A program made the position numbers and the translations under genes. From Chloroflexota bacterium (GTDB lineage Bacteria > Chloroflexota > Anaerolineae > Promineifilales > Promineifilaceae): a DNA stretch of 64,000 nt. Of this stretch, positions 32,601 through 64,000 are shown piece by piece. Positions within the stretch are counted from its first letter, which is position 1. Each line of letters starts with the position of its first letter. The notes below the pieces were generated by a model, which ran no database searches, was not told where the DNA came from, and saw only the letters and a program-made list of their open reading frames with translations. The stretch is from positions 1 to 64,000 of the forward strand of contig JACTMP010000063.1 in NCBI GenBank assembly GCA_014584575.1. The letters run 5' to 3'.

Positions 32601-33221
32601 ATCCGCGCCGAATTGGGCGAAGTCAGCAACCTCTGTTTTACCCAGGCCGACCTGGCGTTGGCGCTGTTGGCGCAGGGAGATGTGGCCGCTGCTGACGATG
32701 CCGTGCAGACAGCGCTGGCCGGTCTTTCGCCGAAAACCACGCCGGAAGCGCGGCAGCAGGCTCATTTTGCCGCGTATGAAATTTTGCTGGCGCAGGGAAA
32801 GGAACCAGGCGCTTTACGCCAACTGGCGCTGGCGGAACAGGTGTTATGGCAAACGGCCAACGCGCTGCCGGAAACACAACGGCCGTCCTTCCTGCAATTG
32901 AACCCGCGCAACCAGGTGGTGCTGACGGCCGTGCAGCGCCACACCCGCACCGAACAAGTCCAACTCGTCAAAGCCGATGTCCCCTCCGGCCGCCGCCTGA
33001 CCGACGCTGATTACACGGCCGTGACCTGGACGCTCACCACCGTCGCCGATGAACTGGCGGACTCGCCCGCCGCCCGCCGCCAGCAGGTCATTCAACGCCT
33101 GCTGCAAGAAGCCGCCGCCCAGGGCACAGCCCCCACCGACGACGACCTGGCGCAAGCCCTGAACGTCAGCCGCCGCACCATTTTGCGTGACCGGCAGGCA
33201 GTAACTTCCCGTGATGCGTGA
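29697..33221 (+). CDS. SARP/AfsR-like regulator: BTAD domain, STAND P-loop NTPase, TPR repeats, C-terminal HTH-like tail
   Basis: BTAD pattern in the N-terminus (LFGSFRAEPPLTLSGRQAQRLLVYLLLHPERAHGRDRLTAQLWPDTPP...RQ). Walker A (LGEAGMGKSRL). More than 10 TPR-like repeats (YQQA.., GNL..). C-terminal segment DDLAQALNVSRRTILRD resembles an HTH. Confidence 0.7.
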   Translation: MRWPQRIYLFGSFRAEPPLTLSGRQAQRLLVYLLLHPERAHGRDRLTAQLWPDTPPDRGRRALSDALYRLRQTAPDHWFDAQPETIALIPPPDLWVDVWEFERLAAPEPATAAALYQGDLVLEIEDEWIWGKRERLREQLTAVLLQLAETAENNQQYATAAGFYGRLAALDELNEAAQRGLMRGHAAQGRLAEALAVYEEFQQLLAAELNVAPAAATQQLARQLQAEWELQQETAVGLTTTPFVGRTVERTHLLARLDEARAGRGGLVVLLGEAGMGKSRLLETLAQSADWRGWQVGWGWGEQFALPAPYAPLAEALTAVLPRPRLQQLARLLPPWPLAQASQIAPAIGRDLQLPPPPESSRREQQLPVALRLLLDGLQQIAPHLLILDDMQWADTAVWPLLTDLQPALAEQSVLLIVSGRLGELRQQTAVWQTLTAWEQQGALVLQLTGLEPQALAEMARVLGRGPLSTAALARLHQASGGNPLLAQSLLELDDPAAQPELISLQRQRLARLSDAALLSLQAAAVLGLHFDYDLWEAVMTGIPAAELPTLAGELEERRLLILEADGYRFSHDTLRACVYLDTPAERRQQWHGRALSAYARLRPDATLSLLYHAQESGDGTAVARYALLAGQECLPRYANHTARDLFTQALAALPPDDGPNRYAALLGRARALGAMGERDAQEADLAHLHTLAGQLGDPAKLAHVLALQAKFYWQTSDFTRARQTIEAGLQLTPEPDAQATLLETLGQVERDQGNYQAARDNFAAAGQLYRQLGNSASVANNYVMAGIVAQRLNDFPQAIALFQQALADGRAIGSRSLETLALGNLVTVHWGMGDYQQAIGYGQQALALGREVGEVWAQASSLGNLGALYALTGDFPAAIEHMQQALAIQRLTRDRQSQAINLSNLANLYLDTSQLDEAISLFTEALDLNRQMGRRRSEGYALHGRGVTYYQAGRLDEAVADLQTAVHIRAELGEVSNLCFTQADLALALLAQGDVAAADDAVQTALAGLSPKTTPEARQQAHFAAYEILLAQGKEPGALRQLALAEQVLWQTANALPETQRPSFLQLNPRNQVVLTAVQRHTRTEQVQLVKADVPSGRRLTDADYTAVTWTLTTVADELADSPAARRQQVIQRLLQEAAAQGTAPTDDDLAQALNVSRRTILRDRQAVTSRDA

Positions 33222-35600: not shown

Positions 35601-35635
35601 GTTTAATTGCCTGAAATTTGTTTTGGAGAAAAACG

Positions 35636-38600
35636 ATGAAGACAAAACTTCTCTTGGTTGTATTCGTGCCCTTGCTGGTGTTAGTCGTGATCGCTCCCTG
35701 GCGGCACACGGCCGTCAGCGCCAACATCGCCCCCAACCCCAAACCACCTCTGGACGAAACATTGCTGGACATGGCCCAAACTCTGGGCACAGTTCCAGTC
35801 ATTATTGGCGTACACGTGCCCGGTTTTGCCCCGGAAGCGGCCGATGAAGCAGCACAAGTCGCGGCGATTCGTCAGGCGCAAACGGCCGTGCTCGACACAT
35901 TAGCCGGTCATAACATCCACAACGTCAAACAATTCCCCTACATCCCTTACATGGCCCTGTGGGTAGACGAAGCTGGATTGCTGACGTTGCAAGCGGACCC
36001 CACCGTGACCACAATCTATGAAGACCGGTTATACGCCCCGGCCACCAGCGACAGCACCCCTATTATCCGCTCCGACAGCGCCAACAGCATCGGCTATGGC
36101 GGCCAGGGGCGCACGGTGGCCGTGCTGGACACCGGCCTCAACCGCACCCATCCCGACCTGAACGGCAAAGTGGTCTCCGAGGCGTGTTACTCCACCTTCG
36201 ACCCCCTGGCCCTGGCTACCAGTTTATGCCCCAATGGTAACAACAGCCAGACCGGGACGGGTTCATCCAACCCACCACCCAATTATGTGACCGGTTACGA
36301 TCACGGTACCCATGTAGCCGGGATTGTGGCCGGGGTGGCGCCCCAGGCCACTCTCATTGGTATCCAGGTTTTTTCGCGTTTTACCGACATTGCCGGGTCG
36401 CCGCCTGGCCCCTTTACCCCTTGCGCCAACGGCGGACGGCCGTCGCCCTGCACCCTTTCTTATAGTTCTGACCAGATTTTGGGCTTGCAGCGCGTCTATG
36501 CCCTGCGCAACAGCTACAGCATCGCCGCCGTGAACATGAGCCTGGGTGGCGGTTCTTACGCCAGTAACTGTGACAGTCTCAATGCTGCCCTGACCACCAC
36601 CATCCTCAGCCTGCGCACGGCCGGGATCACCACCGTCATCTCGGCTGGCAATAACAGCTATCGCGGTAGCATCGGTGCACCGGCCTGCATTTCCTATGCC
36701 GTCAGTGTGGGTGGCACCACCTCCACGCCAGGCCCGGCGACGCCAGACCAGGTGGGCAGTTACTCCAACGCGGCCAGCATTATGACGTTATGGGCGCCCG
36801 GTGGCTGGATTCATGCGGCCGTGCCCACCTGGGCCACCAGTTGTGGGCCGGGCGTCTCCCCGACCAATAACCGTTGTTACAAACAGGGCACCTCGATGGC
36901 CGCCCCCCATGTGGCCGGGGCCTTAGCCGTCATGCGTTCGGCCGTGCCGGGCGCAACCGTGAACCAGCTCATCAGCGCCCTTACCAGCACCGGGCCATCC
37001 ATCACCGACCAGCGTTCGGGTGGGTTTGTGACCAAACGGCGGCTGGATGTATATGCCGCCACCTGTCAGTTGGCGGGGTGTGACCAGGACGATTTCCGCA
37101 CCCTGACGCTGAACCAGAGTTTGAATGGCTCATTGGGTGTCGGCAATGATTACACCGATGTTTATTATTTCAATGGCACGGCCAACCAGCGGCTGCGCAT
37201 CAGCATGAACCGGCTGTCGGGTACGCTCGACCCGTATCTGGTATTTGTAGACCCCAATGGCAATCTGGTGGCGGTGAATAATGATGGTGGGGCGGGCACC
37301 AATGCGCTGATTGACCCGGTGATATTGCCGGTTAACGGCCGTTACACCATCTATGCCCTGCGCGCTAATTCCGGCTCCGGCACCTACCAGATTCAGGTAT
37401 CACAAGGCACGTTTGGCGCAAACCCCGTGCCCACGCTGCTAAGCATGAACCGCACCTCGGCCACCGTCAACAGCCCCGCCGGTTTTTGGGTGGGGCTGAC
37501 CGGCAATAACTTCTCCTCTAATTCGGTTGTGCGCTGGAATGGGCAGAACCGGCCCACCTCGTATTACAGCAGCACCTTCATCTGGGGCTGGGTGAATGCC
37601 AGCGATACCAACGTTTTGGGCAACTACAGCATCACCGTCTACACCCCCACACCTGGCGGCGGCACCTCGTTTGCCCAAAACTTCCAGATCACCTCAGACC
37701 CGCTGGGGGTGAGCGAGATGTTGGCCCCGCTGCCGGACAGCAGTGTGCCCGTCGGCGTGCAGCAAACCTTTGCCATTAGCTGGACACACCCCATTAGCTC
37801 CTGGCGGGTGATGCAAAACATTGACATTCGCCTGAAAGATGTGACCGACCAGACGGCGTTTTGGATTCGTTTCACTGAAGGCAGCCCCACCAGCACCATT
37901 GGCCTGCTGAACAACAGCGGCGAACATATCGCCAGCAGCCCGCTGGTGAGTGGGCAATACGGCCAGCCGGGAGATATTGAAGTGCCGGATATGGTGACAA
38001 TGCACATGGCCAATACCATCTTTTTTGGCTCCGGGCGCACGGTGATTATCAGTCCCACGGTGACATTTGGCAGCCTGGCCCCTGGCCGCTACATGGTGGA
38101 GTTTACGGTGAACAATGACGAAGGGGAGGTGCAGGATGCGGATGTGGTGGGCGCGTTTTATGTGCTGCCACCGGGTTGTGATACGGCGCTGACCGGGGTG
38201 CAGGTGAATGGGCCGGACACAGGTACGGTGAACAGCAATTACCAGTTCACGGCCGTCATCACCCCCACCGCGCTCGCTGATGTCACCTATGTCTGGTCGC
38301 CAGAGCCGGTGAGTGGGCAGGGCACGGCCGTCGCCACCTTCAACTGGTCACAGGCCGGGATGTGGCCGGTGAACGTCGTCGCCCACCATTGCAGCGGTTT
38401 CCTGGCCGACGTAGCCACCATGGGCATTCGCACCACCGTTGCCCCTGACCTGGAAATCAGCAAGACGGCCCCGGCAACGGCCGTTGCCGGCGACCCCATC
38501 ACCTATACCCTGACCATCACCAACCGGGGCGGCACGGACGCCACCGGGCTGAGTATTACGGACACGCTGCCACCGGGCGCAACTTACGTCTCCGGCGGCA

Positions 38601-39451
38601 GCTACAACGGCAGCCAGGTGAGTTGGAACATTCCCACCCTGCCCGGATACGCCTTCGCCTCGGAGGTTATCGCTGTGGTGACGGCTAACGAGACGATCAG
38701 CAACAGTGTCTACAGCGTGACGGCGGCCGGGGGGTATAGTGCGGTGGGGCAGGAAACGGCCGTGACCCGCATCGTAGACGCCCAGGTAAGGCTGACACCG
38801 CTGTTGACCCGCACACTGCATTACGCGGGCAGCCAAAGTACAGAGATGACCGTGCCTTATGGTTCCGTCTTTGCCGAGACCATGCTGACCTACGACGAGT
38901 TGATGACGCCGCCATATCCGGTTCCATCCGGTTATGCCGGACGTGCCTTCCGCCTGAGTGGGTATCAGGATAACCAGATGATGCCCGACCTGGTGTTGGC
39001 GGAAACGGCCGTGATCACCCTCACCTATTCCCAGACGGCCGTCGCCGGGCTGGATGAAAACCTGCTGACGGTGCATTACTGGGACGGGAATGGCTGGGCA
39101 AGAAATGGGGTGACGTGTGAACGGGATGTGCAGGCCAATTGGGTAAGCTGCCACGTGCCGCGCCCGCCGATGACGGCCTATGCGCTGCTGGAAGGGCGCT
39201 CCACCATCTACCTGCCCTTTATCACCAATGGCCTGACGGCTGAACCCACCCTTTCGGCCACCATCACCGGCATCTCATTGGTGGGCAACCAGTATCATGC
39301 CAACTTCGCAGCGGCCCCTGGTATGTGTATGGTGGCGGCAGCCCCTTTACCGGGTACGGGGTGGCCGACCGGCCCCCGGCGGCCACGCAGCTCTGTGTCC
39401 TGGTGGCGAACCATGATCACAGCATCATTCTGGGCAGCGGCAACTGTATGA
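35636..39451 (+). CDS. S8 family serine peptidase (subtilase) with PPC domain and long C-terminal extension; 3' end frameshifted relative to its downstream duplicate
   Basis: Signal peptide. Catalytic D (VLDTGLNRTHPDL), H (HGTHVAGIVAG) and S (GTSMAAPHVAGALAV). PPC-like segment (DYTDVYYFNGTANQRLRI...GTYQIQV). The last ~48 codons are in a different frame from the intact copy at 41533-41929 because of a 49 nt deletion. Confidence 0.8.
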   Translation: MKTKLLLVVFVPLLVLVVIAPWRHTAVSANIAPNPKPPLDETLLDMAQTLGTVPVIIGVHVPGFAPEAADEAAQVAAIRQAQTAVLDTLAGHNIHNVKQFPYIPYMALWVDEAGLLTLQADPTVTTIYEDRLYAPATSDSTPIIRSDSANSIGYGGQGRTVAVLDTGLNRTHPDLNGKVVSEACYSTFDPLALATSLCPNGNNSQTGTGSSNPPPNYVTGYDHGTHVAGIVAGVAPQATLIGIQVFSRFTDIAGSPPGPFTPCANGGRPSPCTLSYSSDQILGLQRVYALRNSYSIAAVNMSLGGGSYASNCDSLNAALTTTILSLRTAGITTVISAGNNSYRGSIGAPACISYAVSVGGTTSTPGPATPDQVGSYSNAASIMTLWAPGGWIHAAVPTWATSCGPGVSPTNNRCYKQGTSMAAPHVAGALAVMRSAVPGATVNQLISALTSTGPSITDQRSGGFVTKRRLDVYAATCQLAGCDQDDFRTLTLNQSLNGSLGVGNDYTDVYYFNGTANQRLRISMNRLSGTLDPYLVFVDPNGNLVAVNNDGGAGTNALIDPVILPVNGRYTIYALRANSGSGTYQIQVSQGTFGANPVPTLLSMNRTSATVNSPAGFWVGLTGNNFSSNSVVRWNGQNRPTSYYSSTFIWGWVNASDTNVLGNYSITVYTPTPGGGTSFAQNFQITSDPLGVSEMLAPLPDSSVPVGVQQTFAISWTHPISSWRVMQNIDIRLKDVTDQTAFWIRFTEGSPTSTIGLLNNSGEHIASSPLVSGQYGQPGDIEVPDMVTMHMANTIFFGSGRTVIISPTVTFGSLAPGRYMVEFTVNNDEGEVQDADVVGAFYVLPPGCDTALTGVQVNGPDTGTVNSNYQFTAVITPTALADVTYVWSPEPVSGQGTAVATFNWSQAGMWPVNVVAHHCSGFLADVATMGIRTTVAPDLEISKTAPATAVAGDPITYTLTITNRGGTDATGLSITDTLPPGATYVSGGSYNGSQVSWNIPTLPGYAFASEVIAVVTANETISNSVYSVTAAGGYSAVGQETAVTRIVDAQVRLTPLLTRTLHYAGSQSTEMTVPYGSVFAETMLTYDELMTPPYPVPSGYAGRAFRLSGYQDNQMMPDLVLAETAVITLTYSQTAVAGLDENLLTVHYWDGNGWARNGVTCERDVQANWVSCHVPRPPMTAYALLEGRSTIYLPFITNGLTAEPTLSATITGISLVGNQYHANFAAAPGMCMVAAAPLPGTGWPTGPRRPRSSVSWWRTMITASFWAAATV

Positions 39452-39515: not shown

Positions 39516-41264
39516 TTGGAGGTAACTATGAAAAACCGGGAATTTTTCCTTTTGTTCAGCGCATTATTGGCGCTAAGTTTTGTCTTGTTTAACATTTTTG
39601 TTACCCACGCCGTTGCCGGTGTTTCCGGTGGTGGTGGGCAGTGGGTGGTGGATCGTCTGGATGACCCGACGCTGCCCGGCGGCTCAGCCTGCACGGAAGC
39701 GCCTGATGATTGCAGCCTGCGTGGGGCACTCAGCGTCTATAATTCGGGCGACCAGATCACCTTCGCCATCACGGGCACCATCACCCTGACCAACGGCGAG
39801 ATACTCATTGCCAATGGCGACGTGACCATCCAGGGGCCAGGCGCGGCCGACCTCATCATCAGCGGCGGTGAGACCAGCCGGATTTTCACCCTCGATCCCA
39901 GCCAGAATGTGACCATTACCGGCGTGACGCTGCGTGATGGGTTTGCCAGCCAGGGGGGCGCAATCTTCAACAATCTCAGCACGCTGACGCTGGCCGATTG
40001 TGTGCTGACGGAAAACACGGCCAGTGACTATGGCGGCGCGATTCAAAACAATGCTGCCACCATTTTCCAACGACCCGCCGGCGCACCCACCTGGGGCGGG
40101 GCGGACGCCCATTTGCTGATTGACAACTGTGTATTGAGCAACAACGCGGCCAGCGGTATAGAGAAAGAAGAGCAGTCTCACGGCGGCCCGACAGGAGTTG
40201 GCGGGGCCATTTACAATACGGCCGTAGGGCCGGGGGCAACGGCCGTTGTCACCATCACCCACAGCACCCTCATCGGCAATACGGCCGATGATGACTTTTA
40301 TGCCGGCGGTGCCATCACCAACTTTGGCTCCGCATTTACCATTCCGGGTAATACCCACGCCGCTGTCTATATCGCCGACAGCACCATCGCCAACAACAGC
40401 GCGCCGAATGGCGATGGCGGCGCTATCGCCAGCTATGCGCTGGATGCCGGTGCATCAACCGCCGTTACCATTCAGAACAGCACCGTCAGCGACAACTCGT
40501 CGGGCAGTGATTTTGGCGGCGGCGGCGGCATTTTCAGCTTTGCCTATAATCGTGATGAGGAGGGGTTGACAGAGGCGACCGTGAACCTGACCGGCAGCAC
40601 CTTTGCCAGTAATGCGGCCACAATGGACAGGGGTGGCGCTCTATTTAATGGCGCACTTGATAGCGGGTCAACGGCCGTCACCCATATCCTCAACAGCACT
40701 TTCAGCGGTAATACAGCGGCCGGCGTGGGCGGCGCTATCGCCAATGATGCCTACAACCGGGATGCGTTGGGCCTGACAAACGCCGCTCTCCACATCACCC
40801 ATGCCAGCTTTGTGGGCAATGATGCGGCTTCCGGCGGGGCCATCGCCAATGTGCCGGTCAGCGAGAACGGAACGTTGGCCGAAGTCCACCTGAAAAACGC
40901 TCTGCTGCACACCAGCAGCGGCGGCGACTGCCAGAACAGCGGCACCATTGATGGTGCCAACAACCTGATTGACGACGACACCTGCGGCACTGATGCCAGC
41001 TTCCGCCTGGGTGCGCCCACGCTGGTTTCGCCGACGCTGGCGGACAATGGTGGCCCCACCCTGACACACGCCTTGCTGGCAGGCACCAATGCCGAAGATG
41101 CCGTGCCGGACGGTGATTGTACGGTAGTCAACACCAGCACCGTCGTTATGGCGGATCAACGCGGTGTGGCCCGGCCTGTGGGCGCAACCTGTGATGTGGG
41201 CGCGGTGGAAGGGGTGATGGTGTCCTTTTCGTTTGGCATTTACCTGCCGGTGATTATCAAGTAG
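39516..41264 (+). CDS. CSLREA-domain / choice-of-anchor-Q-like secreted protein with Pmp (GGAI) beta-helix repeats and C-terminal IYLPVIIK tail
   Basis: Signal peptide. DDCSLRGAL (CSLREA-type) motif. Seven or more GGAI/GGAL repeats. C-terminal DQRGVARPVGATCDVGAVE motif. Ends FGIYLPVIIK. Confidence 0.6.
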   Translation: MEVTMKNREFFLLFSALLALSFVLFNIFVTHAVAGVSGGGGQWVVDRLDDPTLPGGSACTEAPDDCSLRGALSVYNSGDQITFAITGTITLTNGEILIANGDVTIQGPGAADLIISGGETSRIFTLDPSQNVTITGVTLRDGFASQGGAIFNNLSTLTLADCVLTENTASDYGGAIQNNAATIFQRPAGAPTWGGADAHLLIDNCVLSNNAASGIEKEEQSHGGPTGVGGAIYNTAVGPGATAVVTITHSTLIGNTADDDFYAGGAITNFGSAFTIPGNTHAAVYIADSTIANNSAPNGDGGAIASYALDAGASTAVTIQNSTVSDNSSGSDFGGGGGIFSFAYNRDEEGLTEATVNLTGSTFASNAATMDRGGALFNGALDSGSTAVTHILNSTFSGNTAAGVGGAIANDAYNRDALGLTNAALHITHASFVGNDAASGGAIANVPVSENGTLAEVHLKNALLHTSSGGDCQNSGTIDGANNLIDDDTCGTDASFRLGAPTLVSPTLADNGGPTLTHALLAGTNAEDAVPDGDCTVVNTSTVVMADQRGVARPVGATCDVGAVEGVMVSFSFGIYLPVIIK

Positions 41265-57127: not shown

Positions 57128-57196
57128 GGTTGCAGGTTGCAGGTTGCAGGTTGCAAGTGGCAGGTTGCAAGTGGCAGGTTGCAAGTAGTAGGTTGC
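57128..57196. repeat. heptamer array GGTTGCA/AGTGGCA (left flank of the four-helix-bundle gene)
   Basis: ggttgcaggttgcaggttgcaagtggcaggttgcaagtggcaggttgcaagtagtaggttgc. Confidence 0.85.
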
Positions 57197-57221: not shown

Positions 57222-57662
57222 CTAACCTTTCTTCCAACGGCGTTGTTGGTCAATGACGATAATGAGATTGGCGATGATTTCATCTGCCAGCCCAAAGCGG
57301 TGATTGAGCAATTCTGGTTCAAAAACATGGCGGCCCCGGTAGTACCAACCTCTGGTCTCCCTGGCCGAACCAAGTGAAATTTTCAGGAAACGAGCATAAT
57401 CTTTACCATAACCCCGCCCAAAGCCTTCTTCAATGTTGGCAGCAATTGATCCGGAGCTATCAATAAGTTGCCAGGCGACCCCTCTGCCACGCTCATCGGC
57501 CAACAGCTTTTCGCTATCAAACCAGGCCAGGTCTGATAAGAACAATGCCAGGCGGTATGTCTTGAAATCCCATAACGAATCCTTCGTGATACTTTGCGGT
57601 ACCTGTGCTAACCACTCCTCATATTTCTTAAAACCCATGCCACCTCCTGAAAAAACAGCCAC
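57222..57662 (-). CDS. four-helix-bundle protein (23S rRNA intervening-sequence-protein family)
   Basis: SIAANIEEGFGRGYGKDYARFLKISLGSARETRGWYY matches the family signature (…SIPANIAEG.gR….F..A.GS..E….). Likely start is the internal ATG at 57638, which has a GGAGGTG SD. Confidence 0.55.
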   Translation of the reverse strand: MAVFSGGGMGFKKYEEWLAQVPQSITKDSLWDFKTYRLALFLSDLAWFDSEKLLADERGRGVAWQLIDSSGSIAANIEEGFGRGYGKDYARFLKISLGSARETRGWYYRGRHVFEPELLNHRFGLADEIIANLIIVIDQQRRWKKG

Positions 57663-57701
57663 TTGTCACCTGCCACTTGCCACCTGCCACCTGCCACTTG
57701 C
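57659..57701. repeat. heptamer array CCACTTG/CCACCTG (right flank; reverse complement of the left-flank array)
   Basis: ccacttgtcacctgccacttgccacctgccacctgccacttgc. Confidence 0.85.
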
Positions 57702-59185
57702 TACTCCACCTTCCCCTCCGCCCACAATTGGCGGAACGGTTTGGGGGCCAGGGAGGGCAGGGCACGGCCGTCGCCCACATTCACCGGCAGTTTTAAGCCA
57801 TCGTCGTGTTGGAACGGCCATTGCCCCCAGCGTCCCAGTTTTGTAAAAAAATTCATTCGCCCCTCGCTGCCCAGCACAAAGGCGGCAAACTCCTCTGCTT
57901 TGCGTTCACGCCAGGGCAGCAGGTGGGCGGCGACTTCATCCTGGCGCAGTTGCAGCAGCATCCGGGGCAGGTCAATGCGCGCCGGGCAGGCATCTTTGCA
58001 GGCGCCACAAAGGGTGCTGGCCTGGGGTAGGGCGGCATACTCTTCCAGACCAAAGAGCAGCGGCGTCACCACCGCCCCCACCGGCCCGCTGTAGGGGCTG
58101 CCATAGGCGTGGCCGCCCGCTTTTTTGTAGACCGGGCAGACGTTCAGGCAAGCCCCACAGCGGATACATTGCAGGATTTCTTCGTAAGGCGTACCGGCAA
58201 GCTGGCTACGGCCGTTGTCCAGCAAAATGATATGCACTTCTTCCGGCCCGTCGGGCTCGTCGGTGCGGCGGTCGCCGGAACGGCGGGGGCCGGTGATGGC
58301 GGTGGTGTAAATGGACATCGGTTGGCCGGTGGCGCTGCGCGCCAGCAGCGCCAGCCAGGTGGCGGCGGCGTCCCAATCCGGGCAAATTTTTTCAATGCCC
58401 ATGATGGCAATGTGAACGGGGGGCGCGGAGGTGACCAGACGGCCGTTGCCCTCGTTTGTCACCAGCACCAGCGTGCCCGTTTCGGCAATGCCCAGGTTGC
58501 CGCCGCTGATGCCCAGACCCGCGGCGAGGAATTGGGTGCGCAACATGCGCCGCGCTTCGGCGGTGAGGCCATCAATATCGTCGGCGGGTAACGGCCGTCC
58601 CACCTCTTTGCTAAACAGTTCAGCCACCTGGTGGCGCGTCTTGTGGATGGCCGGGCCGATGATGTGCGACGGCGGCTCACCGGCCAACTGGATGATCCAT
58701 TCGCCCAGGTCGGTCTCCACCGGTTCAATGCCGTTGGCCTCCAGCGCCGCGTTCAGGTGAATTTCCTCGGTAACCATGGATTTGCTTTTGGTTACCAGTT
58801 CCACGCCGCGCTGCCGGGCAATGCCCAGCACCACATCTACCGCATCCTGTCCGGTTTGCGCCCAATGCACCTGCGCCCCCGCGGCCGTGGCCCGCTGCTC
58901 AAACAGTTCCAGGTAATGGGCCAGGTTGGCCAGCGTGGCGGCGCGGATTTTTTTGAAGTGGTCGCGCAAGGCGTTGGCGTCGGGCAGTTCGGTGAGAGCG
59001 GAGGTACGGCCGTTGACAAACGTGTTGGTGGCTCCGGTTAGCGCCCCTTGCAGGTGAACATCGGCAATGGCGACGGTGGCGCTGTGCCGAAATTGGGACA
59101 TGGTGGCCGATTGGGGTACAGACATATTCCTCAAGGTAGCCCGGTGGCAGCCCCACCGCAGCGTGTAGTTTATGATGGTCGGCAA
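57701..59185 (-). CDS. lutB: LutB-like iron-sulfur protein (two 4Fe-4S ferredoxin motifs + DUF3390-like C-terminus)
   Basis: CIRCGACLNVCPV and CGACKDACPARI cysteine clusters, size ~494 aa, N-terminal LUD-like domain. Confidence 0.7.
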   Translation of the reverse strand: MPTIINYTLRWGCHRATLRNMSVPQSATMSQFRHSATVAIADVHLQGALTGATNTFVNGRTSALTELPDANALRDHFKKIRAATLANLAHYLELFEQRATAAGAQVHWAQTGQDAVDVVLGIARQRGVELVTKSKSMVTEEIHLNAALEANGIEPVETDLGEWIIQLAGEPPSHIIGPAIHKTRHQVAELFSKEVGRPLPADDIDGLTAEARRMLRTQFLAAGLGISGGNLGIAETGTLVLVTNEGNGRLVTSAPPVHIAIMGIEKICPDWDAAATWLALLARSATGQPMSIYTTAITGPRRSGDRRTDEPDGPEEVHIILLDNGRSQLAGTPYEEILQCIRCGACLNVCPVYKKAGGHAYGSPYSGPVGAVVTPLLFGLEEYAALPQASTLCGACKDACPARIDLPRMLLQLRQDEVAAHLLPWRERKAEEFAAFVLGSEGRMNFFTKLGRWGQWPFQHDDGLKLPVNVGDGRALPSLAPKPFRQLWAEGKVE

Positions 59186-59434: not shown

Positions 59435-60880
59435 GTGGATCCCTGGTCAATCATATCAATCATTTTCACTGTGTACGTTATTGTGGTGGCGATTTTTGTC
59501 ATCTCTGAAAATCGGTCGCCACAATCAACCTTTGCCTGGTTATTTTTGTTTGTCACTTTCCCGTTGTTGGGGGTGCTGATTTACATCTTTTTTGGGCGTG
59601 GCGCCCATACCTTCAGCCAGGAGCGGGACATTGCCCGCACCAAACTGCTGGATGAATTTGTGGCTGACCTGGGGGTGCTGGCGCAGCGGCAGGAAGAATA
59701 TATCCAGCGCATTGCTCAGGAACGGCCGTCTTCATACAAAAAACGGCTACTGCGTCTGGTGCAGCAAAGCTCCAGTTCCGTCCTCACCGGCATGAATGAG
59801 GTAGAGATTTTGCAGGACGCGACCCAAAAATACCCGCGTCTGCTGGCAGACATCAAAGCGGCAGAGCATCACGTTCACCTCAATTACTACATCTGGACGG
59901 AGGATGATTTCACCCTTCAGATAAAAGAGGCGCTCATTGAACGCGCCAAAGCGGGCGTGGAAGTGCGCTGCCTGTTTGATGCGTCTGGTGGGGCCATGAG
60001 CAAACAGTATTTACAGGATTTGCGAGACGCCGGGGTGCAAATTCACCCCTATCTGGAATTCCGTTCGCTGAAAATGCTGCACACCGCCAACTATCGCAGT
60101 CACCGCAAGATTGCCGTGATTGACGGCCGTATCGGCTACGTTGGCGGCCTCAATCTGGACAAGGAGCAAATTGAGCCACCGGCATTCGACCGCTGGCGCG
60201 ACACCCATTTGCGCATGATCGGCGAAGCGGCGCATGGATTACAGGCCAGTTTTGCCATAAGCTGGTACACCACCACCCAGGAAAAAATCACCGGCCCCTC
60301 GTATTACCCCCCGGTGGAAGTGAATACCTTCCTGCCGGTGCAAATCACCCAGGGCGGCCCAGACTCCCAATGGAAAGCGATCCGGCAGGTCTACTTCCTG
60401 ATGATTACTTCCGCCGAAGACCGGATTTATCTGCAATCACCCTTTTTCATCCCCGACGAAAGCATTTTGGAAGCGCTCAAAGCGGCGGCATTGGCCGGGG
60501 TGGACGTGAACCTCATGTTCACGCCGCGTGGCTCTACCTATCAGGTGCCGTACCGCGCTGCCCATACCTATTTCCGCGAAGTGGTGGAAGCGGGCGCAAA
60601 AGTGTATTTGTATGAGGGGGGCTATTTCCATCCCAAGACACTCAACATTGATAGCGCCGTTGTTTCCATTGGCACGGCCAACATGGACATCCGCAGCTTT
60701 AATCTGGACTACGAAACCAACGCCATCATCTATGACGAAGGCAAATCTAAAGAGATGGAAGCGCAGTTCATGGAAGATTTGAAAAGCTGCAAGCAGTGGA
60801 CGCTGGCGGAATACAAGAGCTATTCGGCAGGGCACCGGTTTGTGGATTCCGTTTACCGGCTGGCGTCGCCGCTGTTATAG
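59435..60880 (+). CDS. cls: cardiolipin synthase (PLD superfamily, two HKD motifs)
   Basis: GTG start after a GGAGG RBS. Two N-terminal TM helices. HKD motifs HRKIAVIDGRIGYVGGLN and HPKTLNIDSAVVSIGTANMD. Confidence 0.85.
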   Translation: MDPWSIISIIFTVYVIVVAIFVISENRSPQSTFAWLFLFVTFPLLGVLIYIFFGRGAHTFSQERDIARTKLLDEFVADLGVLAQRQEEYIQRIAQERPSSYKKRLLRLVQQSSSSVLTGMNEVEILQDATQKYPRLLADIKAAEHHVHLNYYIWTEDDFTLQIKEALIERAKAGVEVRCLFDASGGAMSKQYLQDLRDAGVQIHPYLEFRSLKMLHTANYRSHRKIAVIDGRIGYVGGLNLDKEQIEPPAFDRWRDTHLRMIGEAAHGLQASFAISWYTTTQEKITGPSYYPPVEVNTFLPVQITQGGPDSQWKAIRQVYFLMITSAEDRIYLQSPFFIPDESILEALKAAALAGVDVNLMFTPRGSTYQVPYRAAHTYFREVVEAGAKVYLYEGGYFHPKTLNIDSAVVSIGTANMDIRSFNLDYETNAIIYDEGKSKEMEAQFMEDLKSCKQWTLAEYKSYSAGHRFVDSVYRLASPLL

Positions 60881-61018
60881 GGTGATGATTGCGTAACGGC
60901 TGACACGGCCGTGTGCCCCAGGTAATCGTACACGGCCGTCTAGGTTCTCTCTGGCATCACCTCATTGTCAACATATGTCGCCGGTGAAATGAGACGCTGC
61001 TGGCATACCTGCCATCGT

Positions 61019-61047
61019 TTTACAATTCACGGCACTTGACATATAAT
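61019..61047 (+). promoter_or_regulatory. near-consensus sigma70-type promoter: TTTACA -17 nt- TATAAT, about 43 nt upstream of the EAD-like gene
   Basis: ttttacaattcacggcacttgacatataat read directly. AT-rich and conspicuous in a 60% GC background. Confidence 0.45.
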
Positions 61048-61089
61048 TTCGCCAGCTTTAGCTGTATTGTCATTCACTAAGAGAGTTTC

Positions 61090-62418
61090 ATGTCTGACCA
61101 GGTTACGCCCCTACCCAACGGGGAACAACCCGTTGATACCAACAAACTATTGCGGGTACTCATTGAACTGTTCAGCGAACAGGAACTACGCGATCTCTGT
61201 TTTGAGCTACGTCTGGATTATGAAAACCTGGAAGGAAGCGCCAAAAAAGACAAGGCGCGTGAACTCATCAACTACTTTTTCCGTCGCCGCCGCCTCAACG
61301 TTCTGATCACTGTTTTTCGGGAGCATCGCCCGCATGTTACCCTGGAAGAGCTTCTATTAAAGGAGGGCGAGATAGACTCTTCGACCACGATTGTGGGGCT
61401 GCCCACCACACTACCTTCAGCCCCCAAAGATATGTCCAATACCATGCTGGTGAGCAAAAGTTTTGTTACCCTGCTGCGTTTGCTCACTCGCCCCGACATG
61501 CGCGCCGCTGTTGTTGCCTTTCAGACTGATTTCCAGGCTGCCTCCAGCCAGATTGACCAGATGAATGATTTTAAGCTGGCGCATGATCTCTTTCAGGAGT
61601 TAGAAAACCGCTACTTTCTCATCCAGAATGATGAGCGCCGCCTGCCTGCCGATGACATGGCCTGGGATAGCATTGCCATCAATGAACCAGAGTTGCAGGG
61701 CAAAATCAGCGATTTGCGCGTGGTGACGCAGCGCCCCACCTTTGCCACGAACGAAGCGCGCTGGATGGAGCAGTTGGAAAAAGTAAGCGATAGCATTCGC
61801 GTTGGCGTGGAACAGTTTGATCTGGATGAACTCAAGCGGGGTACCAACCTGCTGTATCGCGTCCTCAACCGCACTCCATCGCGCATCAATGCCCAACTGG
61901 TTTCCACCGCGACGGCGCTGCGCCTGGACGCGCTGGAACAAGCCATGCAGACCATCAACACCAATCTTTCTGCCAGCGATTTGAAGCTGGACAGCGTGGT
62001 GGAGGAGATCGCCAGTGGCGTAGCCGCGTTATCGGGGCTGGATGAACGGCTGAAGGTATTGGTGAAGGAGCATAACGCCTGGCAGGAGATAGATGATGAG
62101 CTGCGCCGGGTTGAAGCGGGGCTAAGCCAAAGCATTGATGAATTGGACGACGCCTGGTTTGATCTGGAGCCGATGGCGCGTGACCTGACGGCGGGGCAAA
62201 GTGTGGAGTGGGCCACAGAGCTAAATGATGTAGTAGATAAGCTGGATGAGGCGCTCAAGGAAAAGGTGATAGTGACGGTGCGCCGTCTCTTCCGCCGTTT
62301 CCAGAGCCAGGTGCGGCGCCGTTTCCGGCAGGTGGATTTAGAGTTGTTAACCTTGTGTCAGGATTTGCAGCGGGTGGGCGAATCGCTGGATTTGTTGTTG
62401 AGGCAGTTTGAAAAATGA
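61090..62418 (+). CDS. protein with N-terminal death-like EAD-type (effector-associated) domain and long helical C-terminal region
   Basis: The N-terminus LLRVLIELFSEQELRDLCFELRLDYENLEGSAKKDKARELINYFFRRRRLNVLITVFREHRP matches my memory of the EAD1-like pattern (L..L...FS..EL..LCF.L.vDYENL.G..K..KAREL..Y..RR.RL..L). The rest is predicted helical/coiled-coil. The stop overlaps the next start (ATGA). Confidence 0.4.
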   Translation: MSDQVTPLPNGEQPVDTNKLLRVLIELFSEQELRDLCFELRLDYENLEGSAKKDKARELINYFFRRRRLNVLITVFREHRPHVTLEELLLKEGEIDSSTTIVGLPTTLPSAPKDMSNTMLVSKSFVTLLRLLTRPDMRAAVVAFQTDFQAASSQIDQMNDFKLAHDLFQELENRYFLIQNDERRLPADDMAWDSIAINEPELQGKISDLRVVTQRPTFATNEARWMEQLEKVSDSIRVGVEQFDLDELKRGTNLLYRVLNRTPSRINAQLVSTATALRLDALEQAMQTINTNLSASDLKLDSVVEEIASGVAALSGLDERLKVLVKEHNAWQEIDDELRRVEAGLSQSIDELDDAWFDLEPMARDLTAGQSVEWATELNDVVDKLDEALKEKVIVTVRRLFRRFQSQVRRRFRQVDLELLTLCQDLQRVGESLDLLLRQFEK

Positions 62419-64000
62419 GCGACTTCCAAGAGCATTCCCTTTCGGAGGATGAAATCATCCCTTTTATGTCTTTTGTTTCGTTTCGGGATACCCACCGGGA
62501 CTTGTTGAAACAGCGCCGCGAAGAGAAGAAGGAGCATGGAGAGGAAACACCAGACTTCTGGACGGCCGTAGACGAGTTCCTGAAACGGGGCCGCGCCGCT
62601 GGCGCATTTCTGGACGAGGACAGCGACCGGGAAGCGGCGCAAAATCTGCTCGATTACTGGGAGACACAACTCTTTCACGCCGGTCGGGATATTCCCGACA
62701 TGATCCTGGCTGAATTTAACGCCAGCCTCCAGCCAGAAATCCCCGATGATCGCTGCCCCTACGTGGGGCTGAACGCCTTTGACATCAACAACCAGCATCA
62801 GTTTTACGGCCGTGACCAACTCATCGGCGAACTGCTCAATCAAGTGCTCGTCAGCCGGTTGGTCACCACCATTGGCCCCTCCGGCAGCGGCAAGTCGTCG
62901 GTGGTATTAGCCGGGCTGCTGCCCCGCCTCAAGGCAGGGGAACTGCCTGGCAGCGCCTTGTGGAACTACTTTCCGGTCATTGTGCCCGGTTCTGCCCCCC
63001 TCACCGCCCTGGCCCGCCTGCTCCAGCCCGCAGATACCAACACGCCCACCTGGATAGTGGAAAACACCGAAAAACTGCGTGATGATACCAACCACCTCAC
63101 CACCCTGGTGGAAAATTTTAGCCAGGAAGCCTCCGTGCTTGTCATTGACCAGTTCGAAGAGACCTTCACCCTTTGCCACGACGAAGAAGAGCGCAACGCT
63201 TTTCTGGAAAACTTGCTAAACCTGGTTCGCTCTCGTGATACACGCCATGTGGTCATCTTAACCATGCGGGTAGATTACGAGAGTTACCTGACCAAAGCAC
63301 CCCTGTTTCACTCATTGGTCGAGCAGGGACAGGTGCGCGTCAGCGCCATGAACACCGCCGAATTGCACGAGGCTATCGAAAAACCGGCGGCGGCCGTCGG
63401 GCTAAAATTTGAAGAAGGGTTGGTGGACGCCGTTGTCCGCGAGATTGTTGGTGAACCGGCAGCGCTGCCGCTGCTGCAATTTGCCCTGTTGCAATTGTGG
63501 GATAACCGCGAGCGCAACCGCGTCACCTGGGAAACCTACCGCCGGTTGGGTGGCGTCATGCAGGCATTGGCCAACACCGCCAACCAAATTTACGATAATT
63601 TGCTGCCCGAAGACCAGGTAACGGCGCGGCGCATCCTGCTGCGCCTGGTGCGCCCCAGCGAAGGGCTGGAATTCACCCGCCGCCGTGTGCCCGTCCAGCA
63701 GATTTACCAGGCTGGCGAAGCCCACGACCGGGTAGACCGTGTCCTGGAAAAATTGATACAGTCACGGCTGGTGCGCCGCACCAGTGGGCACACCGAAGAA
63801 GATGATCAAATTGAAGTAGCCCACGAAGCATTGGTGCGTAACTGGCCGCGCCTGGTGGACTGGCTGGATGAGGAACGTATTCGCCTGCGGCACCGCCTGC
63901 GCTTCACCGACCAGGCTGAACAGTGGGACGCGCTGAACCGGGACGAGGGGGCGCTGCTGCGCGGCGCTCTCTTGCAGGAGGCGCTGCAATATGAAGACCT
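62415..64000 (+). CDS. nSTAND-type P-loop NTPase (CPYxGL-FxxxDxxxFFGR ... GPSGSGKSS), 5' part; continues past the window end
   Basis: Not in the ORF track because there is no stop inside the window. Translation from the ATG at 62415: ...DDRCPYVGLNAFDINNQHQFYGRDQLIGELLNQVLVSRLVTTIGPSGSGKSSVVLAGLLPRL..., then Walker-B-like LVIDQFEE and a helical domain. Family assignment is from memory of cyanobacterial/Chloroflexi WD40/TPR-fused NTPases. Confidence 0.55.
   Translation, partial: MSDFQEHSLSEDEIIPFMSFVSFRDTHRDLLKQRREEKKEHGEETPDFWTAVDEFLKRGRAAGAFLDEDSDREAAQNLLDYWETQLFHAGRDIPDMILAEFNASLQPEIPDDRCPYVGLNAFDINNQHQFYGRDQLIGELLNQVLVSRLVTTIGPSGSGKSSVVLAGLLPRLKAGELPGSALWNYFPVIVPGSAPLTALARLLQPADTNTPTWIVENTEKLRDDTNHLTTLVENFSQEASVLVIDQFEETFTLCHDEEERNAFLENLLNLVRSRDTRHVVILTMRVDYESYLTKAPLFHSLVEQGQVRVSAMNTAELHEAIEKPAAAVGLKFEEGLVDAVVREIVGEPAALPLLQFALLQLWDNRERNRVTWETYRRLGGVMQALANTANQIYDNLLPEDQVTARRILLRLVRPSEGLEFTRRRVPVQQIYQAGEAHDRVDRVLEKLIQSRLVRRTSGHTEEDDQIEVAHEALVRNWPRLVDWLDEERIRLRHRLRFTDQAEQWDALNRDEGALLRGALLQEALQYED

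Follow-up and report, generated by a model that had tools for sequence, protein, structure and literature searches.

The window, by which we mean the whole 64-kb stretch of DNA analysed here, holds at its end the 5' half of a three-gene cassette that has a promoter of its own and is conserved across Ardenticatenales-type Chloroflexota. The first gene (gene 1, 61090..62418, forward strand, as for every cassette feature given below) is an open reading frame of 442 aa starting with ATG, and its product, which we read as an adaptor protein, consists of an EAD7 domain, a linker and a constant C-terminal part called here the C-module. It is preceded by a sigma-70-type promoter (61019..61047; -35 element TTTACA at 61019-61024, a 17-nt spacer, -10 element TATAAT at 61042-61047) that matches 11 of the 12 consensus positions. 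The pattern TT[G/T]ACA-N16-18-TATAAT occurs a single time on both strands of the 64 kb, against 0.02 occurrences expected from a mononucleotide shuffle, and the promoter stretch TTTTACAAT...ACTTGACATATAATTT shows no variation in eight orthologous loci, where the conservation begins right at the -35 element and the DNA farther upstream cannot be aligned. The promoter proposed in the original prediction is thereby borne out, as is its rarity; the window, however, has a GC content of 57.7% and is therefore only moderately GC-rich, not plainly GC-rich as had been stated. A TTGACA hexamer directly abuts the -10 element. The likely ribosome-binding site, read from the sequence as AAGAGAG (61079..61085), stands 4 nt before the ATG, and its core is kept in seven of the eight aligned orthologous loci, the remaining one (L012) having ACGAGAG.

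The N-terminal part of gene 1 was expected to be an EAD-like death fold, and the suggested comparison with Pfam agrees: EAD7 (PF19960) is matched at aa 20-81 (61147..61332) over its full length (model positions 1-62 of 62) with 64.3 bits against a cut-off of 32 and an E-value of 8.9e-18. The same profile is matched by all 42 aligned homologues, and in the AlphaFold2 model of gene 1 (pLDDT 82) this domain finds structural matches almost exclusively among CARD, PYD, DED and DD, so that the head is a predicted death fold of the EAD7/death-like superfamily. More than 120 full-length homologues share at least 50% identity with gene 1, and those with a name all come from Chloroflexota/Ardenticatenales-type MAGs. 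A disordered linker with pLDDT below 50 follows (aa 92-121, 61363..61452); it is the part least alike between orthologues (identity 0.72), and its dN/dS (0.14) is the highest. The rest was rightly described beforehand as helical and devoid of enzymatic motifs: the model is all-helical past EAD7, with pLDDT >90 over most of residues 130-440, no other Pfam family exceeds its threshold in gene 1, an NCBIfam scan gave no match, and a hydropathy calculation found no hydrophobic segment and hence no transmembrane (TM) segment.

Profile searches delimit the C-module as a constant helical unit of about 320 aa (aa 118-442, 61441..62415) for which Pfam has no model. A search of 1.84 billion cluster representatives returned 660 matches at E <= 1e-30, and a local HMM check of the 148 proteins retrieved from the best 150 of these 660 found the module full length and C-terminal, behind variable heads, in nearly all of them; the C-module is a constant C-terminal unit that occurs in hundreds of protein clusters. 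When 135 heads from the best 150 matches were clustered, an EAD7-linked cluster (60 heads) and a CHAT cluster (28 heads) emerged, while a local EAD7 HMM recognised 40 of the 148 proteins. The heads further include EAD10, trypsin, Mrr nuclease, Swt1-HEPN, S/T kinase, BTAD and TIR. No other part of gene 1 is as constrained as the C-module (dN/dS 0.054). Across 149 diverse members H165 is invariant, and K162, D166, W225, N267, H328, Q332, W356, W374, D416 and C423 are conserved at 90% or above. A tblastn comparison with 72,556 plasmids gave no C-module match. The view that the helical partner of the NTPase is an uncharacterised effector or sensor is probably wrong, given a constant module that stands behind variable heads and adjoins an nSTAND1 gene.

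Several C-module proteins (P0153, P0207, P0213, P0226) have a very short head or none, which one would not expect of a pure adaptor and which hints at a function of the module's own. It could then be a latent effector or a regulatory subunit, such as a helical-bundle toxin or an inhibitor of the NTPase, released or remodelled when the NTPase fires and comparable to EACC1/CATASP, the small constant partners of caspase-type systems, with the heads as extra cargo. We consider this unlikely: canonical effector heads (CHAT, TIR, HEPN, Mrr, trypsin) make a second effector unnecessary, the missing hydrophobic segment of gene 1 speaks against it, the operon of the window has no protease for a release, fold matches are generic and Pfam matches stay below threshold. 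The latter are CTD11 (PF20277) at aa 118-196, with 17.9 bits in gene 1 and 26.3 in the best member against a cut-off of 27.7, and CATASP (PF20271) at about aa 320-372, with 26.2 bits at best against 29. Among 42 family members, CTD11 is matched at E <= 0.05 by eight and CATASP by 11, gene 1 of the window not being one of these 11. The CTD11 similarity, below the Pfam cut-off and covering about 80 of the 320 residues, is suggestive only.

Gene 2 (62415..64000) is translationally coupled to gene 1, the stop and start codons overlapping as ATGA at 62415-62418, which had been noticed already, as had the fact that the frame runs on past the window, which contains 528 of its 1028 aa. Contigs whose gene 1 product is identical gave its full length (L001: 3238-6324). 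It begins with an unnamed helical N-terminal domain of about 110 aa (NTD, 62415..62756), which has no Pfam match, and continues with an nSTAND1 NTPase domain, a coiled coil, a TM segment, a low-complexity spacer and an FGE-sulfatase/lectin domain, the last recognised by Pfam at aa 772-1023 with an E-value of 8.9e-51. The assignment to nSTAND-type NTPases was correct, since PF20703 is matched over residues 115-511 (62757..63947) with 385 bits against a cut-off of 27.1 and an E-value of 5.7e-115; an NCBIfam scan of gene 2 produced P-loop noise only. The predicted head motif is present as CPYVGLNAF and FYGR followed by the P-loop GPSGSGKSS, but the spacer between the first two counts 7 residues, not 8. 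The Walker A motif (GPSGSGKS) occupies 62874-62897, the Walker B motif (VLVIDQFEE) 63135-63161.

Gene 3 lies beyond the window and was read from contigs with an identical gene 1 product; it encodes 1370 aa in the order NTD, nSTAND1 (371 bits), TM and WD40. In both NTPases Walker A (GPSGSGKS/T) and Walker B (hhhhDQFEE) are intact, and what had been recommended for inspection downstream of the NTPase domain turned out to be a TM segment with FGE-sulfatase/lectin on gene 2 and WD40 on gene 3. Each NTPase possesses a single strongly hydrophobic stretch that is preceded by a K/R-rich flank and followed by an acidic one. By this simple hydropathy/positive-inside calculation both NTPases are predicted to span the membrane once and to expose their FGE/lectin and WD40 sensors outside the cell. 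The NTD that opens gene 2 also heads gene 3, and neither N-terminus has a fused EAD or effector. In gene 2 it has a dN/dS of 0.050, and it and the C-module (0.054) are the two most constrained segments. Concerted evolution of the two NTDs was not seen, their identity being 34% where that of the NTPase domains is 51%; hhalign rejected the NTD as a homologue of EAD7 or of the C-module (probabilities 0.2% and 0.1%).

According to our survey of 23 independent metagenome loci, 21 of them informative (downstream DNA present), an NTD-nSTAND1 reading frame lies directly 3' of the C-module gene in 20 of the 21, mostly with an ATGA overlap, and in the last one an nSTAND1-WD40 gene is directly upstream, so an nSTAND1 gene stands beside the C-module gene in all 21. 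The operon of the window has this layout, with the ~320-aa C-module on the 5' gene and the ~110-aa NTD on the adjacent nSTAND1 gene; L044 and L045 show it as well, and one such pair is located in a genome of 11.3 Mb. The heads verified in these pairs are CHAT (L028, L038, L039, L045) and TIR (L036). The NTD goes with the C-module whatever the head, be it CHAT, TIR or an unnamed one, and therefore tracks the C-module and not EAD7. From this co-occurrence and position we infer that C-module and NTD may be a heterotypic docking pair, which would split the effector arm from the NTPase. Published nSTAND1 architectures, in the accessible parts of two surveys (PMC8195603; 10.1101/2023.09.22.558884), do not include the NTD and have a fused EAD or effector there instead; the pair has no name in Pfam or in the accessible text and source data of Kaur et al. 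2021 (PMC8195603), and four accession numbers from the C-module family are absent from the accessible supplements of that work.

The EAD principle would place the coupling elsewhere, as it expects the core NTPase to bear another copy of the EAD (PMC7159879): the EAD7 of gene 1 would bind a highly diverged death fold at the N-terminus of gene 2 or 3, with the C-module as payload. The NTD is indeed small and helical like a death fold, and a Chloroflexi MAG encodes a fused EAD7+nSTAND1+TM+FGS protein (KAA3662250.1). We regard such homotypic coupling as very improbable here, in view of the profile-profile probability of 0.2% between NTD and EAD7, of an NTD that accompanies the C-module irrespective of the head, and of a C-module that is constant where a payload would vary. 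Nor was the second copy described by Kaur 2020/2021 found locally, be it in the 64-kb window, in the operon or within 10 kb in 16 loci. The original prediction of an EAD-coupled, NTPase-centred conflict system is borne out in its EAD7 and nSTAND1 parts and partly supported as an interpretation; the surroundings are housekeeping genes. Searching with a profile of just the EAD7 region yielded nothing but short proteins or fragments (51-146 aa) and did not reveal a repertoire of EAD7 effectors. Two context look-ups, which showed a TIR-EAD7 protein adjoining a NACHT gene (L043) and, in a Promineifilaceae MAG, EAD7 proteins of small size, gave no partner for the gene 1 operon.

Apaf-1 (CARD-NB-ARC-WD40) works with procaspase-9, and FADD and ASC are death-fold adaptors. 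The reading that we favour, and hold to be somewhat more probable than its contrary, is that the three genes form a split, membrane-anchored NLR/apoptosome-like signalling system with gene 1 as its adaptor. Genes 2 and 3 would be paralogous nSTAND1 NTPases with one membrane pass each and the NTPase domain in the cytoplasm, sensing outside through an FGE-sulfatase/C-type-lectin-like domain and through WD40 propellers, respectively. The C-module of gene 1 would dock on the NTD common to both, which would take the position of the fused effector or EAD of other nSTAND1 proteins. In relatives the C-module head is itself an effector (CHAT caspase, trypsin, TIR, HEPN, Mrr nuclease, kinase); the head of gene 1 is a death-fold EAD7, and gene 1 would therefore act like FADD or ASC. 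With a ligand on the sensor and NTP bound, the NTPase would oligomerise and cluster the docked EAD7 domains, which would recruit or activate EAD7 proteins encoded elsewhere in the genome, the output being possibly cell death or defence, or possibly another signal.

About 10 species-level genomes were compared for the cassette. The order of gene 1, nSTAND1-FGS and second nSTAND1 is kept in nine of ten loci at 60-93% identity, the tenth (L014) ending after gene 2, and the second NTPase can be aligned through its WD40 part in eight. The proposed check of neighbourhood conservation thus supports the three-gene order, whereas the upstream neighbour varies among loci and the genes around are housekeeping ones. 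The cls-like PLD gene upstream of gene 1 (59435..60880) is real according to Pfam, yet it had to be rejected as a functional neighbour because it is absent upstream in all ten genome loci. Downstream, a nitroreductase gene is kept in seven of eight close relatives and a methyltransferase gene in four. All domains of the cassette, the sensors included, are under purifying selection (dN/dS 0.05-0.14). Diversification of the gene 2 lectin by a DGR was rejected locally: no further copy of the FGS 3' end exists in the window or in loci with up to 10 kb of flank, the 64-kb window has no long open reading frame with YxDD, and the lectin 3' ends of strain-level contigs are 98.7-99.6% identical. PADLOC-DB v2 gave no match for gene 2 and, for gene 1, only LmuB in the coiled region (E 0.005), and no defence island was found near the cassette. 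With housekeeping surroundings and no PADLOC model, a defence role is therefore without contextual support.

These data may also be understood as those of a domesticated transmembrane signalling device which is not directed against invaders but senses a conserved extracellular or envelope ligand and has a physiological output, for instance programmed death of filament cells, development or an envelope stress response, in parallel to LypABC of Caulobacter. Its inheritance throughout the lineage at one chromosomal position, the housekeeping neighbours, the selection on every domain, the near-identical lectin 3' ends with no template copy nearby, the outcome of the PADLOC search and the predicted outward-facing sensors all agree with it, and co-option has a precedent in the CARD-NLR-like LypABC of gene-transfer-agent lysis (PMC13236601). 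The wider C-module family, however, bears typical abortive-infection effectors (CHAT, TIR, HEPN, Mrr), published statistics link EAD and nSTAND1 systems with conflict systems (PMC7159879, PMC8195603), and the comparison covers only about 10 species-level genomes, so that we find this role rather doubtful. Being a proposal about biological role, it can stand beside the adaptor mechanism.

Among known systems, the cassette is a split variant of the predicted class of immunity or cell-death systems in bacteria catalogued by Kaur et al. 2021 (eLife; PMC8195603). It shares with their STAND NTPase-FGS systems, as far as the accessible parts of that source go, the nSTAND1 clade, the C-terminal FGE-sulfatase/C-type-lectin sensor, EAD7 and the multicellular or filamentous hosts. 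The accessible tables list nSTAND1+TM+FGS and nSTAND1+TM+BetaPropeller, the neighbourhoods 'CASPASE-> nSTAND1+BetaPropeller' and 'TIR-> nSTAND1+TM+BetaPropeller', and EAD7 on STAND-TRADD-N, AP-GTPase and TIR-FGS proteins of Chloroflexi. Unlike in those systems, the EAD belongs here to a protein of its own, together with the constant module of 320 aa, the NTPases bear an unnamed NTD in place of an N-terminal EAD or effector fusion, and neither a second EAD7 nor a DGR is nearby. The DGR-diversified pairs of STAND-C-type-lectin targets (Dore et al. 2023, 10.1101/2023.09.22.558884) are likewise tandem nSTAND1/NACHT proteins with C-terminal lectin-fold sensors, some predicted periplasmic, in filamentous Chloroflexi and other multicellular bacteria; our cassette differs by having the lectin on one NTPase and WD40 on the other, no template repeat or reverse transcriptase nearby, and a conserved lectin 3' end.

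Apoptosomes, inflammasomes and bacterial CARD-NLR-like gasdermin systems (Wein et al. 2023, PMC10312443) share with the cassette a STAND NTPase whose sensor is of the repeat or lectin kind, and in the apoptosome logic, too, a separate protein brings a caspase-like protease (as in the CHAT relatives) or a death-fold adaptor (as in the cassette) to the NTPase. The NLR-like protein of bacterial CARD systems has an unassigned helical N-terminal domain of ~150 aa and no N-terminal CARD (PMC10312443). In contrast to these, the coupling in the cassette would be heterotypic (C-module-NTD) and not CARD-CARD, the NTPases are predicted to be membrane-anchored with their sensors facing outward, and the operon is without protease, gasdermin or other effector. 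The third component of ABC-3C/Lamassu (LmuA-like) similarly joins a variable N-terminal effector or EAD to a helical C-terminal domain of constant type (CTD1-12), through which it is coupled to an ABC/SMC ATPase, and its CTD11 is the one that comes near threshold on the first bundle of the C-module; the cassette NTPase is a STAND instead, and a middle component is missing. The two-gene EACC1/CATASP systems (PMC7159879; 10.1101/2025.11.14.688446) have a constant small or helical 5' component, sometimes fused to an EAD, and a large variable 3' signalling protein, and nSTAND1 has been reported in some EACC1 systems (PMC7159879). EACC1, however, is a domain with one conserved TM helix whose partner protein bears a caspase, while gene 1 has neither TM nor EACC1 Pfam match, the operon has no caspase, and the CATASP similarity is sub-threshold.

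On a larger scale, we tentatively advance as possible, though less than probable, that C-module and NTD are an unnamed heterotypic adaptor pair defining a large split STAND family (hundreds to thousands of metagenome clusters), in which a separate polypeptide with a caspase-like, TIR, HEPN, nuclease, kinase or death-fold head plugs into the NTPase as a bacterial counterpart, through a different fold, of caspase recruitment by CARD. In Ardenticatenales the pair would be fixed lineage-wide as a purifying-selected transmembrane receptor pair feeding a death-fold network, and may control the fate of filament cells on a conserved extracellular cue, not on rapidly evolving phage. Systems of nSTAND1 and EAD are known from comparative genomics only, the accessible parts of the cited papers reporting no experimental test, and the cassette is a clean, conserved and compact example of them. 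It suggests that effectors join one large branch of bacterial NLR-like NTPases via a constant helical module and the NTD, and not by fusion or homotypic death folds. If true, this would fill two gaps in domain definitions, account for hundreds of 'hypothetical' genes next to STAND NTPases, and make the pair of CHAT caspase and WD40-NTPase a bacterial apoptosome analogue for biochemistry. For the organism itself, lectin and WD40 sensors that are under purifying selection and predicted to face outward make one ask what conserved ligand outside the cell is being watched, by means of an NLR-like switch, in a filamentous bacterium.

Gene 1 of the cassette (61090-62418, + strand) is a 442-aa ORF whose end overlaps, in an ATGA, the start of gene 2 (62415, + strand), and the latter runs for 528 codons before the window ends. 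According to Pfam, EAD7 occupies residues 20-81 of the gene 1 protein over the whole model (E 8.9e-18), and nSTAND1 occupies residues 115-511 of the gene 2 protein (E 5.7e-115), so that the original prediction of an EAD-like head on gene 1 and an overlapping nSTAND-type NTPase is borne out. Its sole slip of description concerns CPYVGLNAF...FYGR, where both motifs are present and the spacing is seven residues, not eight. Structure prediction supports the death-fold call; weak Pfam DED matches were found in 9 of 42 gene 1 family members, and the covered part of Kaur et al. (PMC8195603) lists EAD7 against Pyrin and DED with p about 1e-3.

The near-consensus promoter proposed for the pair also stands. 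TTTACA-17-TATAAT (61019-61047) matches 11 of 12 consensus positions and is the only site of such quality on both strands of the 64 kb, with 0.02 expected. The stretch TTTTACAAT...ACTTGACATATAATTT at the promoter does not vary among eight orthologous loci, and conservation starts exactly at the -35 element, because the DNA 5' of this invariant stretch is unalignable; the ribosome-binding core AAGAGAG is kept in 7/8 of these loci. A small terminator-like hairpin (61001-61014, + strand; TGGCATACCTGCCA, then TCGTTTT) ends directly at the -35 element and may insulate the cassette against read-through from the upstream cls gene, which encodes a cardiolipin-synthase-like PLD protein by Pfam.

Many assembled contigs encode exactly this gene 1 protein, and on the longest of them (L001-L006) the full layout is visible: gene 1, gene 2, gene 3, an unrelated methyltransferase and a convergent nitroreductase. 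What follows the NTPase domain, a matter raised with the original prediction, is a C-terminal FGE-sulfatase domain (E 8.9e-51) in the full 1028-aa gene 2 protein, and downstream of it lies a second NTPase, the 1370-aa gene 3 protein, with nSTAND1 and WD40 propellers of about 600 aa. Both are built alike: a helical N-terminal domain (NTD) of ~110 aa comes first, then nSTAND1, whose Walker A and B motifs are intact, a coiled coil that is short and charged, a hydrophobic segment, a spacer and a sensor. Each has just one strongly hydrophobic stretch, at aa 597-626 in gene 2 and aa 551-578 in gene 3, preceded by a K/R-rich flank and followed by an acidic one, and none was found in gene 1. The simplest reading of these sequences is a predicted N-in/C-out topology, which would put both sensors, lectin-like and WD40, outside the cytoplasm. 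The spacers are 130-150 aa long and Ala/Gln/Glu-rich; in gene 2 (aa ~627-760, L001 5100-5560), as in the gene 3 equivalent, a long Ala/Thr/Gln/Glu-rich low-complexity tract leads from the membrane segment to the sensor, and that of gene 2 terminates in 11 consecutive glycines. The spacers probably serve as extended stalks, keeping the sensors off the membrane.

The part of gene 1 behind EAD7, a constant helical C-module of ~320 aa, is met in a much wider family. A profile search over 1.84 billion cluster representatives gave 660 matches at E <= 1e-30, 2998 at E <= 1e-10 and 9464 at E <= 1e-3, the last set probably including proteins that match EAD7 only. In nearly all of 148 proteins from the best 150 hits a local HMM found the module (residues ~118-442) end to end and C-terminal. 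The 135 heads in front of it vary: 60 belong to an EAD7-linked cluster (a local EAD7 HMM matches 40/148 of the proteins), 28 are CHAT/caspase, 13 are a ~70-aa helical hairpin without assignment, and further ones are EAD10, trypsin, Mrr-type nuclease, Swt1-type HEPN, Ser/Thr kinase, BTAD and TIR, with several unassigned. This is the familiar syntax of a variable effector and a constant coupling domain, with the helical module as the constant part. The original suggestion that the helical part of gene 1 is itself an effector or sensor is unlikely, because it is precisely the part that stays constant behind varying heads. Members with a short head or none exist, and the module has many conserved polar residues, among them K162, H165, D166, N267, H328 and Q332, so it may also act by itself, either as a latent effector or by regulating the NTPase. 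No Pfam model reaches threshold on it; recurrent near-threshold similarities are to CTD11 of ABC-3C/Lamassu third components (module aa 118-196) and to CATASP, over the conserved H-x2-WQ-x2-DDELRR motif. CTD11 and CATASP are each a constant partner in NTPase- or caspase-based systems.

Two kinds of head deserve mention by themselves. P0121, a metagenome representative of 840 aa, carries three tandem EAD7 domains before the module, plus another N-terminal region of ~230 aa, and may be a multivalent form of the adaptor. The hairpin head of P0134 and its like (the 13/135; L044 10001-11308) sits at the EAD position with the pattern Q..LL..HR..L..LL.Q.A..G..Y.PP.V..GI.EAR..I..IK..LR.WG; neither Pfam nor an hhalign comparison with EAD7 gave a match, and it may be an undescribed effector-associated domain.

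A metagenome scan for C-module genes yielded 23 independent loci, 21 of them with downstream DNA. In 20 of these 21 the ORF directly 3' of the C-module gene begins with the same NTD as in genes 2 and 3, followed by nSTAND1, mostly through an ATGA overlap, and in the one exception an nSTAND1-WD40 gene immediately precedes the C-module gene. The pairing is independent of head type, as it holds for EAD7 (L018-L027), CHAT (L028, L038, L039, L045), TIR (L036) and unassigned heads (L029-L034, L040, L044). The NTD matches no Pfam model; kinship with EAD7 or with the C-module was ruled out (hhalign probability 0.2% and 0.1%). Its conserved motifs are HRDLL, RG.A.G and AQNLLDYW. Purifying selection acts on every domain of the cassette with dN/dS of 0.05-0.14, lowest in the gene 1 C-module (0.054) and gene 2 NTD (0.050) and about double that in EAD7, FGS (the FGE-sulfatase/C-type-lectin-like sensor) and WD40, all ratios being rough as dS is near 1. 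From co-occurrence, position and this matched constraint we infer that C-module and NTD form a putative heterotypic docking pair. In published nSTAND1 architectures, as far as the sources were covered, a fused EAD or effector stands at the position of the NTD (10.1101/2023.09.22.558884; PMC8195603), for example EAD8-nSTAND1-FGE of Thiohalocapsa (10.1101/2023.09.22.558884) or EAD7+nSTAND1+TM+FGS, CASPASE+nSTAND1+TM+BetaPropeller and TIR+nSTAND1+BetaPropeller in Kaur's tables (PMC8195603). A docking pair would allow the effector arm to be a separate, co-translated polypeptide.

Gene 1 has more than 120 full-length homologues at at least 50% identity, and all taxon-named ones come from Chloroflexota MAGs, assigned to Anaerolineae, Ardenticatenaceae, Promineifilaceae or Leptofilum. 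Nine of ten species-level genome loci (60-93% identity) keep gene 1, nSTAND1-FGS and the second nSTAND1 gene in this order; L014, the tenth, ends after gene 2, and the second NTPase is alignable through its WD40 part in eight. In none of the ten does cls precede the cassette. Among eight close relatives the downstream nitroreductase is found in seven and the methyltransferase in four. Other window genes are housekeeping (a LutB-like protein, a CitMHS transporter, hydrolases, alcohol dehydrogenase), and neither PADLOC nor NCBIfam recognised the gene 1 or gene 2 protein. No template of a diversity-generating retroelement (DGR), as a second copy of the FGS 3' end, was found in the window or the loci, and the FGS 3' stretch is 98.7-99.6% identical between strain-level contigs. 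With lineage-wide conservation, sensors under purifying selection, no DGR template in window or loci and a housekeeping context, a domesticated signalling role is as good a fit as classical phage defence, or a better one, and a precedent exists in the CARD-NLR-like LypABC system of Caulobacter (PMC13236601). Both this role and an own function of the C-module bear on output and biological role more than on architecture.

Elsewhere in the window, 29697-33221 (+) encodes a second STAND-type protein, SARP/MalT-like and unrelated to nSTAND1 (BTAD + AAA_16 + TPR, 1174 aa); BTAD is also the head of one C-module protein, P0214. The gene at 35618-39451 (+) encodes a large S8 subtilase of secreted type (1277 aa) that carries PPC and DUF11 domains, and behind it lies a 582-aa ORF (39516-41264) for which Pfam gave nothing at E <= 1e-5. 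Two heptamer arrays (57128-57196 and 57658-57705; GGTTGCA x ~10 and GCCACTT/GCCACCT x ~7) flank a small gene (57222-57662, -) for a 23S_rRNA_IVP four-helix-bundle 'intervening sequence protein' (Pfam, E 2.6e-13), and both arrays are similar to the short heptamers in tandem repeats that filamentous cyanobacteria are known to have.

The class as such is known from comparative genomics: EAD and nSTAND1 in multicellular bacteria, the sensor being FGS or a beta-propeller and a TM segment often being present, and Kaur's source tables already hold the gene pairs 'CASPASE-> nSTAND1...' and 'TIR-> nSTAND1...' (PMC8195603, as covered). In the text, tables and supplements, as far as covered, we did not find the constant 320-aa module and NTD recognised as a coupling pair, an adaptor version that is headed by EAD7 and lacks an EAD partner nearby, a single adaptor for two NTPases with different sensors, or fixation with a private promoter across Ardenticatenales.

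Neither the operon nor the window contains a further EAD7, and none was found within 10 kb in 16 loci; since the head of gene 1 is EAD7 and not an enzyme, gene 1 looks like a two-sided adaptor. With one side it would be docked onto two membrane NTPases with differing outward-facing sensors, and with the other its death-fold domain would be free to bind homotypically to EAD7 proteins from elsewhere in the genome. For related Chloroflexi the covered part of Kaur's tables (PMC8195603) holds STAND+TRADD-N+EAD7 (an Ardenticatenaceae MAG), LRR-AP-GTPase-COR+EAD7 and EAD7+TIR+FGS. Among our retrieved loci, a 757-aa protein without Pfam domain precedes a 127-aa protein with C-terminal EAD7 (L041 3627-6384), a few kb from an LRR-Roc-COR GTPase and in the same accession series as the Promineifilaceae MAG of L016; they are candidates for the lineage's EAD7 network. 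Related Chloroflexi also have, in another system (L043 4806-6438), a TIR_2-EAD7 protein that neighbours a stand-alone EAD7 protein, the two adjoining NACHT and cyclase-AAA_16 genes; this exemplifies classical EAD7 homotypic coupling. In formal terms, CHAT-headed relatives that come with WD40 NTPases are closely analogous to Apaf-1 and caspase-9. Ligand-driven, NTP-dependent oligomerisation is established behaviour of STAND proteins, and in these Chloroflexota oligomerisation of the NTPases would cluster the EAD7 domains and nucleate a downstream step.
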